From: Macrostomum lignano
Taxonomy: Eukaryota
Length of the DNA: 64,000 bases
Direction: 5' to 3'
NCBI GenBank assembly: GCA_002269645.1
Contig: NIVC01001270.1
Coordinates: 82,040-146,039, forward strand
The position numbers and the translations under genes were made by a program. Position 1 is the stretch's first letter, and every line of letters begins with the position of its first letter. Of this stretch, positions 44,999 to 63,817 are shown one piece after another. The notes under the pieces are model-generated. The model was given only the letters and a program-made list of their open reading frames with translations. It ran no database searches and was not told the origin of the DNA.

Positions 44999-46384
44999 AG
45001 ACATACAGAGTTTTGATTTTTATAGTTAGAGATATTGCATACTAGAACTATATAATCAATATTAATAATGAGTAGAACTCCTCCTTTGGAGGAGATAGGG
45101 AAAGAACTCTCATTTCCAGAAGTTAAATTTTAAGCATAAATTTCAAACTTTCAACTAAATTATCTGTTAGTAGGAGTCTATCATGCAATTAAAAGAAGAT
45201 CATTTATTGTCAAAATGTAAAAAAGGTCATTTATTGTCGCAACACTGGCATAGTTTTGACAAATGGCATGCATTTGTAATTATTCAATTTTTGTTCAGGC
45301 GTGCACCTAGCATGATCCAGACTATGGTTTCTACTGTTGTATTTTTCATCTCTTATCTAGCTTTTAGTCTTATGTCTGCACCCTTTGCTCTCATTTTTAC
45401 CCTCTTCTTTTTCCTCACTAATTTCTCTTCTCTACACTTCCATCTTTCTCATTTCTGATCTTTTATCTCTCTTTTTCTCTTTTTTCCCTTGTCTCATTTC
45501 TCTTTCCTCTATTCCTTCTCCTCTCACCTATCTCTCCTCTCTCTCCTCTCCTCTCTCTACTCCCTTATTTATCTCTTCTCCCTCATCCTTCATGTCTACT
45601 CTCTCCTGTCTTCTCTTTCCCTTCTTCTCATATCTAATTTCTACCCTTTTATTGTCTCTTCTCTACTTTCTCTTTCTCTCTTCTTTTTATCTCTCTCTTC
45701 TCTGCTATCAATTTTCATATCTCATATATGTTCTCACCCTCACCTTCATTTAATTCTTTTCATGAAACTGAATTCCATCAAAATTCTCTTCTTTCAACAA
45801 CAATCTATCAATATCATCTCTGTCAAGCTACAATTCATCAAATTTTTATCATAAGTTTGCAGTTTTCCAATATAAGTTTCAACGCTGAGTTCCAAATAGC
45901 CTAGGAAAAGTTACGTTACATACACATATATACAAACAACACGTAAGTTTTAGTATTAGGAGATGACAAGCCAAGCAAATAACAACAATTTTAATTTAAC
46001 CTTTATGAAATTGTATTCAATCAGTGATTACTACACTAGGCCCTAAGCAATACCATAGTCACAAGGTGGAGTAGCCTATCATTTTTTGAAAAAATATAGG
46101 CCTATTCACGATTTTGCTAGGCCATATCTATATATTATAGTATTTATATACTATTTCTATGCTATAGGCCTAGTCCTAAGTATATGCTATGCTATGCAAG
46201 TAAGATTCATTTGCTTTATATATAGGAGGATTAGATCAAATCTATAGGGTATCCACACTTTGGTGCTTGTGCTTTTTGGTGCCTAGCACTTTGGTGCCCC
46301 AGTTTGCTTTTCAATGCTTAAATTATAAATTTGAATTAGAAACAAAATTTTTTTCAATTGCAGTACATTCTTACTTTAAATAAC

Positions 46385-47225
46385 TGAGGTAGGCCTTATT
46401 TTAACATTGTTCGTTTCCTAGAAAATAGTGTATTTGAAACTAGACTATTTTGTTTTAACACGTATAATATTAGTAATATTGTAAATATTTTAAATATTAT
46501 GAAATTTTATTTGTTTAAAAGACCAAATCGAGAGGAGTATAAATACACGAGCTGAATAAGAAGGAGAGCAACTGGTGCAACTTGTGCTTCGTTGGCTTCA
46601 AGCCTAAAACTGTTCTAGTATATTGCTCAATACTCACTGACTTAGTTATTTTAGGAAGCATCAGAAGCCTCAAAATTGAGAGAGTTCAACCCGTTCTTAG
46701 TGAACGAGACAACCAGATCTAGGATCTGAGAAATCGCCTGTAGAAGGCAGAAATCCTACCACAGGGTAGAGAAGTCCAGACTCAGAGTCTGAGAAACCCA
46801 CCTCAGGGCAGAATACCCAGCGAAGTGCGCTGTGACCCTCTGATCCCGGGAACGCCCAGGACTGAATCTTTAGAGTATAGGAATAGAATAGACAGTGCCT
46901 AAGAGACCGCTCAGGCCCGAAAGTACAGTAAAAGTACATACGCTACCAATAGAAGTACAGACGCTACCAATAAAAGTACATACACTACCAATAGAAGTAC
47001 ATGCACTACAAGTAGAGGTCAAGTAATAACCAGCAATATTAACAAAAAGGAATAACCCCTGCAACAACTTAGTGACAGCGGTGAAATCATTTGTAGGGAC
47101 AGAAGTTAACCACCAGCACAACTTTAGTGACAGCGGTGGGATTGTATAGAAAGACGGAGCCCTACGTCAACTTTGGTGACAATAGTGGGAGAATATTAGT
47201 AGAGGCAGAAGTAAGCCCTACGACA
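46385..47225 (+). repeat. 5' LTR (841 bp): TATAAATA at 46538, AATAAA at 46969, 21-bp repeats at about 46940-47005, PBS-like array at 47070-47191
   Basis: Matches 51483-52323. Confidence 0.95.
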
Positions 47226-47229
47226 ACTT

Positions 47230-47240
47230 TGGTGGCAGCG
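47230..47240 (+). other. Primer-binding site TGGTGGCAGCG (tRNA-Leu)
   Basis: 4 nt after the LTR-terminal CA; complementary to the metazoan tRNA-Leu(AAG/TAG) 3' end CGCTGCCA-CCA. Confidence 0.9.
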
Positions 47241-47246
47241 TAAAGG

Positions 47247-47365
47247 ATCAGAGAAACGGCGCGACTTAGATCAGAGAAACGGCGCGACTTAGATCAGAGA
47301 AACGGCGAGATTTAGAAAAACGGCGTGAATTAGATTAAAGAAACGGCGCGAATTAGATCAGAGAA
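47247..47365 (+). repeat. 23-bp tandem repeat (GATCAGAGAAACGGCGCGACTTA) in the 5' leader
   Basis: About 5 progressively degenerate copies between the PBS and the gag ATG. Confidence 0.85.
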
Positions 47366-47387
47366 ACAGTAGAAATTAGAAACAGAA

Positions 47388-47975
47388 ATGGCCAACGCAA
47401 ATGATGCGATTGCAATGCTAGCTGAAGAGCTAAGAAACAAGGTAGAACTAGGATCGCTGAAGCAGGTAGAAGTAGAAAAGTACACGCCTGACAAGAACAT
47501 TAGGCAGTGGCTCAACGCATTCGAGCAGCAATGCAGGATGCAAGGACTTAACGGAGAAGAGCGGAAGGAAGCCCTCTTCGCCAATCTGGATATCCCAGAA
47601 GGACTGAAGCGGAGGATGAGCCATAGGAAAGATCAGCAGCATTATCAGGAGATTAGGAGGCAGATCATTGAGGAGTTTGAGTCAAAACAGCAGAACCAGA
47701 AAGGAGGAACTGAAGCCCTAGTGGAGTGCTTGGTCACCTTGATAACTATCTTCACTAGTATCAACGTGAACTCAAACCCGGAACGGCAGCAGCAGTCTCA
47801 GCCAATGCCAAAACCGCGTCCCCAGTCCAGGCACCGATTTAGTGGCGCCAGACCTGAGCCAAAACCTGGCCATTGCTTTTTCTGTGGACAGTCAGGACCA
47901 ATTAGACCGCAGGCAGGTCACAGATGCAGACTTAACTTGGGAGAAGCCAGACAGCGAGCCCAAGAGAAAGGATGA
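47388..47975 (+). CDS. gag: Gag-like protein (195 aa) with a degenerate zinc knuckle
   Basis: EKY...WLNAFEQQC..G...RKEAL capsid-like pattern; CFFCGQSGPIRPQA where CCHC is expected; position directly after the PBS. Confidence 0.7.
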   Translation: MANANDAIAMLAEELRNKVELGSLKQVEVEKYTPDKNIRQWLNAFEQQCRMQGLNGEERKEALFANLDIPEGLKRRMSHRKDQQHYQEIRRQIIEEFESKQQNQKGGTEALVECLVTLITIFTSINVNSNPERQQQSQPMPKPRPQSRHRFSGARPEPKPGHCFFCGQSGPIRPQAGHRCRLNLGEARQRAQEKG

Positions 47976-50127: not shown

Positions 50128-51304
<1,177 letters not shown>

Positions 51305-51470
51305 CTAATTTTGTCTTTTTACTTTTGCCTTAGTGTACTGCTTGACATACTTACTTTTGCCTTGAAAATATCAATTTATCATTTTGTGTGCTGCTTAAAT
51401 ATTTTACTTAGATTTTGACAATTTTACTCACGTCAAATTTTTGTAAATTTTTGTTCATAAATATTGTCTT

Positions 51471-51481
51471 AGGGAAGGCAG
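51471..51481 (+). other. Polypurine tract AGGGAAGGCAG
   Basis: Directly upstream of the 3' LTR. Confidence 0.8.
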
Positions 51482-51482
51482 T

Positions 51483-52323
51483 TGAGGTAGGCCTTATTTT
51501 AACATTGTTCGTTTCCTAGAAAATAGTGTATTTGAAACTAGACTATTTTGTTTTAACACGTATAATATTAGTAATATTGTAAATATTTTAAATATTATGA
51601 AATTTTATTTGTTTAAAAGACCAAATCGAGAGGAGTATAAATACACGAGCTGAATAAGAAGGAGAGCAACTGGTGCAACTTGTGCTTCGTTGGCTTCAAG
51701 CCTAAAACTGTTCTAGTATATTGCTCAATACTCACTGACTTAGTTATTTTAGGAAGCATCAGAAGCCTCAAAATTGAGAGAGTTCAACCCGTTCTTAGTG
51801 AACGAGACAACCAGATCTAGGATCTGAGAAATCGCCTGTAGAAGGCAGAAATCCTACCACAGGGTAGAGAAGTCCAGACTCAGAGTCTGAGAAACCCACC
51901 TCAGGGCAGAATACCCAGCGAAGTGCGCTGTGACCCTCTGATCCCGGGAACGCCCAGGACTGAATCTTTAGAGTATAGGAATAGAATAGACAGTGCCTAA
52001 GAGACCGCTCAGGCCCGAAAGTACAGTAAAAGTACATACGCTACCAATAGAAGTACAGACGCTACCAATAAAAGTACATACACTACCAATAGAAGTACAT
52101 GCACTACAAGTAGAGGTCAAGTAATAACCAGCAATATTAACAAAAAGGAATAACCCCTGCAACAACTTAGTGACAGCGGTGAAATCATTTGTAGGGACAG
52201 AAGTTAACCACCAGCACAACTTTAGTGACAGCGGTGGGATTGTATAGAAAGACGGAGCCCTACGTCAACTTTGGTGACAATAGTGGGAGAATATTAGTAG
52301 AGGCAGAAGTAAGCCCTACGACA
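51483..52323 (+). repeat. 3' LTR (841 bp)
   Basis: Matches 46385-47225; followed by TSD TAAC. Confidence 0.95.
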
Positions 52324-53927
52324 TAACTAAAGTATTATTCATTTTGTTAAGTTGACTCTGCTATTTAAATCTATTGAGAAACCAAAACATGATTGCATGT
52401 TACTCAAAAAATCAAATTGGTACTAAGATATTTGTCACATTTCATAGTTTTGATAAAAACTATATATAAAATCATTGTTACATATCATTGTTACCTAACT
52501 AAGAAGTTTTAGAAAACATTTATTATCTTGTAATAAGATTACTTTATTATTTAGGCATCATAAACCTAGACTTTGAAAAGTTATATATATGCCAGAAAAT
52601 TCCAGCATATTCTGGAATTCCAGTGTCCAAAAAATTCTGGCATACAAACAACCCCTTTTAAAGTTGGCGTACAAATTTTGGTATACAAAAAATTCATACA
52701 ATTTTTTGGCATATAAATTTTGGTGAAAAAATCATGCTGTGCATGAAAATTATATTGTAAATTAACACTTTAATGTAAAACAGAAGAAATTTCGTATAGT
52801 CTATAAAAAGTCAGTGATAAACTTTTTGTTTCTTTAAAATTTACAATAAATACAATTAGTAAAAATTATTGCTAAAAACATAAATTTTGCATTATTATTT
52901 TAGGTAAAATTTAAATTTGTTTAAAATGAAAGATTCATAATATTTTAAAAAGACTTTTTGTACAAAAACCTTTTTTAGAAAGCTTAGCTCATGAAAACCA
53001 AATGACTTTTTAGGAGAAACTTTTGGCATACATTTGTAGGGAAATTTTTGTTTTTGGTATACATTGGCATATATTTAGCTAAGATAGAATTCTTGTTTCA
53101 GTGTATACTACTATATGATCTAGACCCTGGTCATAAACTAAGGCACCAAAAAGCAATCTAGGATACCAAAATGCAAGGCACTTAAAAGCATAGGTACTAA
53201 AAAGCATGGAAACCATATAGTATGTGCACTAATAGACTAGATTAGGTTACAATAGATTGAATGCAGGAGGCTAGGGACTTAAAGTCTTAAGGAAATATAT
53301 TATTTAATAAAATATTTCAAATGCTTAAATAAGCAATAAATAAAGAAAAAAACTATATAGGCCTTCTTGATTATTGTTAATGGTATTAATATTGGTATTA
53401 CTATAGTATAGTATAGTGATATAGTCTATGATCACCAACATTGCAGTGTTAGTTGAAACAAGTCATTTTTGGTGGTTTTTAAAAGCCTCTCATACCAACC
53501 ACTTTGGATTCCTGCTACCCTTCTGTTGCAACCAACAGTGGTCTTCAATGAAAAGAGACAAGGCTTTATAATTTATTGTGGCTCACAGTTGGTCCCAACC
53601 AAACAGCAGGGACAGGAGAAGAAATGGAGAAATGTTTTCCCAGGAATCAATATATTATAGCCCAACCTTCAAACCAGCTAGGATGAAATTGGGTAGGTGG
53701 CACCATGTCTATGTTTTTGGTAATAATCTTTTAGGTCTTTTAAAGGTTGCAAAATTGTAAATTAATTGTAAATTATATTATTTATATTTTTGTTGATCAC
53801 TTTACAATATTATTATTTATCATATTTCTATCCTAATATGAATATAAATATACTATATGGAATGGCCTTTTAAAATATTGCAGCTAATCAACGCAATCAA
53901 AATTGGTGAAAACAATCAATAGCCATC

Positions 53928-63817
<9,890 letters not shown>

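Follow-up and report, generated by a model that had tools for sequence, protein, structure and literature searches.

Repeated primer-binding-site and LTR-end cassettes inside Ty3/Gypsy LTRs of Macrostomum lignano

The element and its three-unit array

The window, that is the whole 64,000-nucleotide stretch of contig NIVC01001270.1 that was analysed, contains a 5.9-kb element bounded by two long terminal repeats (LTRs) and a 4-bp target site duplication (TSD). The parts of the element mapped below lie on the forward strand. The LTRs, at 46385-47225 and 51483-52323, are direct repeats with TG...CA termini and are identical across 841 bp; the left TSD copy (46381-46384) is matched by the four bases just 3' of the 3' LTR (52324-52327). 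The functional primer-binding site (PBS) at 47230-47240, 4 nt past the LTR, is an 11-nt variant complementary to the 3' end of host tRNA-Leu(AAG/TAG), and a polypurine tract (PPT) at 51470-51482 runs up to the 3' LTR. Between them are a leader with 23-nt tandem repeats (47246-47367), a divergent gag-like ORF of 195 aa (47388-47975) and a Pro/Gln-rich third ORF (50147-51094). The gag-like ORF has 35% identity to the first ORF of a coding relative, L110 (E 2e-29), and the third ORF has 99% identity with L110 over 137 aa. A Pfam search of the window ORFs, these two included, gave nothing above cut-off. There is no RT or integrase ORF between the LTRs, so the copy is not autonomous. Taken together, the window element is a young, non-autonomous Ty3/Gypsy copy. 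The Gypsy gene order was read in the coding relatives L110, L114, L115 and L120: in these, protease, RT-RNase H and integrase follow one another, integrase after RT-RNase H. L110 has the same three-unit array as the window element, described below, and the same third ORF. Among named RTs, a hypothetical protein from a flatworm comes closest (95%), and others, outside that genus, reach at most 50%. The third ORF after pol is Pro/Gln/Ala-rich in L110, L114, L115 and the window element; it is retained in coding and non-coding copies and has no Pfam match. Elsewhere in the window, a reading frame holding a P-type Ca-ATPase-like exon was noticed by eye amid tandem repeats (54765-56195).

What is unusual in this LTR? 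Its last 160 bp, in both copies, are filled by an array of PBS-like 18-mers, each preceded by CA and a linker of 3-4 nt. They begin at 47070, 47125 and 47174 (52168, 52223 and 52272 in the 3' LTR), and with the real PBS at 47230 the spacing is 55, 49 and 56 nt. The array starts after an innermost att-like LTR-end motif with a 3-nt linker (47055-47069, CA at 47066). Unit A (47070-47124) and unit B (47125-47173) each consist of a PBS copy, a spacer, an att end (CA at 47120 and 47169, respectively) and a linker, and unit C (47174-47225) consists of a PBS copy, a spacer and the terminal att end. To score the copies, the primer tRNA sequence was taken from the host genome's own tRNA-Leu genes. Those for tRNA-Leu(AAG), at 7 loci, and tRNA-Leu(TAG), at 5 loci, have one common 3' end, and the 18-nt PBS is complementary to it. 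Units A, B and C match it at 14, 16 and 13 of 18 positions, and the functional PBS matches 11 nt consecutively and then breaks. In 3000 dinucleotide shuffles of the LTR, none had three sites of at least 13/18 and none had any site of 16/18, and only 14 had one site of 13/18. Exact pieces of about 100 nt spanning 47081-47190 were found in contigs from three of the four public sequencing runs examined, which rules out an artefact of assembly.

These results bear out what an earlier note had observed in the letters of this DNA. The positions and spacing that it gave for the three 18-mers and the real PBS were reproduced; the relation to tRNA-Leu, for which it had used the human gene, holds for the host AAG and TAG genes and against the shuffles; and the impairment that it saw in two copies where the tRNA CCA end pairs is confirmed as the loss of a pairing G in two of the three copies. 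It had also counted nine G-to-A changes among the eleven mismatches. The count is right, although the excess is modest when the G-rich PBS is allowed for, with 9 of 17 distinct changes falling at G. Unit B is chimeric, the 5' half of its PBS being a type-A variant, and its computed pairing with the tRNA 3' end is stronger than that of the functional PBS (-28.0 vs -25.5 kcal/mol). Of 28 matches to the functional 11-nt variant in the genome, about 21 lie at an LTR-leader junction; the variant was considered as the complement of another tRNA gene, and no tRNA was found in its 28 loci. Nor do the units look like sites for a second isoacceptor: within the incomplete tRNA set used (63 of 61948 candidates scored, plus 28 pattern matches), only type I of the unit types described below is closer to the CAG gene (2 vs 3 mismatches), with 6 vs 7 for type E. 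The global fold of the LTR end is unremarkable (z -1.0).

Motifs suggest in which part of the LTR the array lies. A putative TATA box from a motif scan (46538-46543) suggests a U3/R boundary shortly 3' of it, and a putative polyadenylation signal (46969-46974) would put the array in U5; such a signal is not universal, occurring at most 250 nt before the array in 28 of 51 LTR records, and the U5 position is putative. A 36-nt island with a short palindrome (46829-46864) is the sole part of the LTR body common to several subfamilies, and is a candidate dimerisation or packaging signal.

Just upstream of the polyadenylation signal lies a box whose sequence is the complement of parts of the host tRNA-Leu 5' half (46903-46968). 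It contains a D-arm match (46904-46912) and two matches to the acceptor 5' strand (46940-46947 and 46961-46968) inside 21-nt repeats. The computed duplex with tRNA-Leu nt 1-24 gives z -8.8 against shuffled tRNA, and the minus strand is much weaker. A box of this kind was found in 5 of 11 LTRs tested (z -8.8 in the window, -6.3 in family X, -5.9 in L114, -4.6 in L069 and -3.8 in L115), and was not seen in the LTRs of families Y, Y2 and W (z -1.2 to +0.8). Judged by complementarity, the box probably supplies the second site of a bipartite PBS. Its pairing with the tRNA may explain why an 11-nt PBS is enough. Separately, the first 10 nt of the PBS are present as one copy, with no att end before it, 110-320 nt inside the LTR end in L051, L059, L069, L072, L092, L114, L117, L119 and L122. 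This copy occurs in most tRNA-Leu families sampled, including ones without an array; in several LTRs a short stretch matching the 5' acceptor strand of the tRNA comes next, and unit type D starts alike.

Array variation within the family

To describe the family, 51 distinct LTR records were parsed, and duplicates and LTR pairs were merged by their flanks into 41 insertions. Three arrays in which the parser had overrun into leader or flank (L009, L011, L204) were corrected by hand, and two loci at contig ends (L195, L196) were dropped. The number of units per insertion is 1 in 13, 2 in 9, 3 in 15, 4 in two, 5 in one and 6 in one. Thus the unit number is not invariant, as the earlier note had proposed to check; of the ladder of 0 to 4 units that it predicted, the variation and the TSD-flanked ends are present, but the range is 1 to 6 and none of the 41 insertions has 0 units. 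The insertions hold 14 unit types in 27 distinct arrays. Both orders were seen for 10 of the 23 pairs of types that co-occur twice or more. Among 28 solo LTRs with a located start, 25 have an exact 4-bp TSD, two have one mismatch and one fails; seven more are without a located start. Nine unit types were found as the integrated, TSD-flanked end of an LTR, type A among them (solo LTRs L012 and L013), which agrees with the earlier observation that spacers end in sequence like an LTR terminus.

Does the array follow the LTR to which it is attached? It hardly does: what an array contains is almost unrelated to the LTR body beside it (Mantel r 0.08, p 0.09). Of nine pairs of LTR bodies at least 97% identical, only three have the array in common, and the same unit types occur in subfamilies that have only an island of 36-110 nt in common with the window LTR. 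Within the units, 10 of 19 att variants are common to more than one unit type, the PBS part does not covary with the spacer or tail of its own unit (p 0.67), and recent exact tandem duplications of a unit are seen in L090, L121, L128 and L139. The spacer middles are related to each other (score 12.3 vs 8.2 +/- 0.4 when shuffled). They are not captured leader, since they show no resemblance to the present leader (z at most 1.7). An origin from PPT or mini internal domains was likewise ruled out (mean z 0.76, with one of 14 at 2.6), and spacers match the LTR body only in its last 12 nt. Along the array there is no clear polarity of age; first and last units pair with the tRNA about equally (-19.6 vs -21.1 kcal/mol). 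The array is a set of modular, recombining cassettes. An ordered record of past priming is not supported: pair orders conflict, the array is nearly independent of the body, the spacers are unlike the leader and there is no 0-unit copy among the 41.

The two LTRs of one copy were compared in 36 full-length copies in which both ends could be read, which was not so for 18 more candidates; the sample derives from PBS matches and is not random. The arrays are symmetric in 33 of the 36, so a change of the array in any one cycle is rare. In the other three the two sides differ by one unit. In L127, whose LTRs are 99.9% identical with the TSD intact, an extra unit lies between the 5' LTR and the PBS, on the 5' side only. 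In L121 (LTRs 98.9% identical) and in the C3171 element (98.7%), one additional unit is present in the 3' LTR only, and the 5' LTR of the C3171 element has a chimera joining the body of one unit to the end of the next, which is typical of a deletion. The asymmetry of the latter two could be due to slippage after insertion. Two other irregular structures were noticed. In L007 / L110 the 3' LTR breaks off behind unit A; a short piece in inverted orientation and an incomplete second PPT-LTR junction follow, and then the normal end. On contig C1833, 4.6-kb element copies (L248, L260) stand head-to-tail with LTRs shared, and the junctions shown have the same multi-unit array.

Other tRNA-Leu-primed families and masked inner copies

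For the 15-nt core of the PBS, the host genome gave 775 exact matches and the control 0. At the loci sampled, further families (X, Y/Y2, Z and W) have units of inner PBS, spacer and att end in 0, 1 or 2 exact copies. In a tree of 28 single segments, X, Y and Z have 57-62% identity to the window family in RT-RNase H. The first 22 spacer bases of X, Y and Z agree at 13-19 positions and their LTR bodies are unalignable; going by these comparisons, units have likely been exchanged between families divergent in RT. Part of the spacer agreement is imposed by pairing. Copies with 0 units, a TSD and near-identical LTRs exist in families Y/Y2 (L072, L086).

Folding of spacer against PBS was computed for these units. 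Among perfect inner PBS copies, 9 of 11 are predicted to fold into such an anti-PBS hairpin (z -1.5 to -3.3), compared with 0 of 7 functional PBS regions and none of the 14 degenerate unit types of the window family. Note that the eight hairpin units of X, Y, Z and Y2 are not independent, since all come from one spacer lineage. A perfect inner PBS without a masking hairpin is found in L128 and in a unit from a marine metagenome, and L286 combines a perfect inner PBS with an 11-nt functional PBS. A single distal unit, in which the PBS is perfect, distinguishes L140 from L141/L142; the possibility that unit gain in L141/L142 rewrote both the PBS of the new unit and the functional PBS is contradicted by L286. 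Mutation and a predicted anti-PBS hairpin are the two routes by which inner PBS copies are consistently put out of use.

The marine metagenome sequence (L239, also L238 and L240) is a 359-bp mini element with a palindromic head, five PBS + att units and a 4-bp TSD. It is absent from the host genome and therefore comes from another organism. A scan of viral contigs in IMG/VR for paired PBSs found 0. Two more sequences came up as side observations. L037-L039 are clustered tRNA-like genes of 73-76 nt with Leu(TAA) and Ile(TAT) anticodons and no long variable arm, possibly Lys-derived or SINE-like. On contig C955 (L294-L296) there is a 34-bp satellite whose unit holds the core of the 11-nt PBS variant.

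Origin of the array and known systems

How, then, is such an array made and changed? We think it fairly probable that the array, which consists of interchangeable cassettes, each with a PBS copy, a spacer of about 25 nt and an end usable by integrase, is reshaped by template switching in reverse transcription. In favour of this are the varying number and permuted order of the units, the occurrence of the same types across subfamilies, the nine types that serve as integrated end, the chimeric units and the one-unit differences between the LTRs of young copies. The repeated att-linker-PBS junction of about 30 nt would be the crossover site. A unit would be lost by priming at an inner PBS or by plus-strand transfer to the wrong junction, and would be gained when strong-stop DNA re-anneals to an inner junction, either on the same cDNA or on one packaged together with it. 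Wrong-junction annealing would also permute units and yield chimeras. Since any units lying beyond a live inner PBS would be shed, units would persist mainly with the PBS mutated, as in the window family, or masked by an anti-PBS hairpin, as in the other families. Binding of the tRNA to the short functional PBS would likely be aided by the upstream box for the tRNA 5' half. In Ty3 and Ty1, according to PMC5371799 and PMC7472051, plus-strand transfer relies on homology in R-U5; the PBS is passed on to the new copy, and strong-stop DNA bearing a short tRNA tail builds up as a dead end. The stable 11-nt PBS variant would, by analogy, fit such inheritance. The layout of L127 would result from inner-PBS priming, an idea already raised in the earlier note, and it is present in this one copy. 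Against the simplest form of template switching, L128 and L286 have perfect inner PBS copies that do not fit.

A wider possibility, which we hold to be rather doubtful, is that tRNA-Leu-primed Gypsy elements keep a recombining library of U5 cassettes. Modules would spread across families via the PBS, each could become the integrase end, and a masked PBS would give switchable priming sites, among them one behind the 3' LTR from which no first strand transfer is needed.

Might the array instead be retained for a function, such as alternative or 3'-LTR read-through priming, extra tRNA loading, or decoys for tRNA fragments (tRFs)? The lack of a 0-unit copy in the window family, the occurrence in four RT lineages and in the mini element of another organism, and the strong pairing of unit B would agree with this, as would two reports from other systems: in PMC5542766 an engineered vector primes at a PBS just behind the 3' LTR, and in PMC7472051 PBS mismatches are proposed to lessen tRF silencing. 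Yet the inner copies either have mutations where priming would start or are masked by a hairpin, 0-unit copies flanked by TSDs do exist in Y/Y2, and neither covariation of PBS with spacer nor a second-isoacceptor pattern is seen, so that we consider retention for function unlikely. A decoy role in particular is unlikely; extra sites in the RNA of the element itself would be more plausible as additional targets.

Change after integration, in the manner of a minisatellite, through slippage at replication and gene conversion from one chromosomal LTR to another, appears quite unlikely. The units are indeed short, related repeats, recombination is evidently frequent from the solo LTRs, and the C3171 chimera is of the deletion type. 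However, with the same array in both LTRs of 33 of the 36 copies, changes must have been fixed before or during retrotransposition; moreover, the 5'-side unit of L127 is absent from its nearly identical 3' LTR, and slippage alone does not permute order. Lastly, the proposal of the earlier note that U5 grew stepwise by capturing old units of LTR end and PBS, taken here to include leader, leaving an ordered record of priming, is very improbable: every unit has an att end and a PBS, and L140 and L141/L142 differ by one distal unit, as it would have it, but it is largely refuted by the conflicting orders, along with the near independence from the LTR body, the roughly equal tRNA match of first and last units and spacers unlike leader or PPT region, and could apply only to the way in which a unit first arose.

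The array is real, and is a new structural variant of Ty3/Gypsy LTRs. A literature search, with most subscription journals outside its scope, found no description of such an array; Repbase-type consensus entries could hold such LTRs undescribed. It is not described in the available portions of PMC4580426, PMC4227088, PMC3902901, PMC8220671, PMC13524379, PMC10886601, PMC12789967, PMC5542766, PMC7472051, PMC1635307, PMC5371799, PMC11302176 and bioRxiv 2020.06.11.145755. Why does it matter? The LTR end and the PBS are usually taken, by annotation software as well, as single fixed landmarks; here, across four or more lineages of one genome and also in a second organism, they come as modules that are repeated and reshuffled. 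Such arrays are a natural barcode of template switching, in which differences between the LTRs of a young copy report the primer site and the plus-strand transfer route that were used. They bear on the way in which strong-stop DNA is transferred, and the PBS inherited, in Gypsy elements outside yeast, and show how LTRs can lengthen at U5.

Several known systems come close to this arrangement. In engineered retroviral vectors with two PBSs, the work of Voronin and Pathak in 2004, initiation is reportedly possible at either. The engineered LTR1 vector, as PMC5542766 describes it, initiates behind the 3' LTR, but it is a laboratory construct, whereas the array here is natural, polymorphic and spread over several families. 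Tandem arrays of TRIM elements and Helenus (PMC10886601) resemble ours in repeated LTR-PBS junctions and in tRNA-related sequence within LTRs. Each TRIM repeat, however, holds a complete LTR, a PBS and a PPT, whereas the units here are without U3/R and without a PPT match; a TRIM tandem array was rejected on the spacer comparisons given above (PPT region and LTR body). Helenus/TRIMp3 was rejected as well: there is no tRNA gene in the window, the matches are antisense, and the element, at 5.9 kb, is not very short. In Helenus the tRNA-related sequence is a tRNA-gene promoter, and here it is an antisense PBS. The bipartite PBS of Ty3 and Drosophila gypsy, as described in PMC5371799 and PMC1635307, has a short 5' PBS and a second tRNA-pairing site, as computed here, where the second site also pairs outside the tRNA 3' end; but the second sites in those elements are single, pair with other tRNA regions and are not PBS repeats with an att end. 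Finally, canonical Ty3/Gypsy elements have, like the window element, TG...CA LTRs, a 4-bp TSD, a PBS a few bases past the LTR and a PPT. Their PBS is single and lies outside the LTR, whereas here one to six cassettes of PBS and LTR end lie inside it, in variable order.
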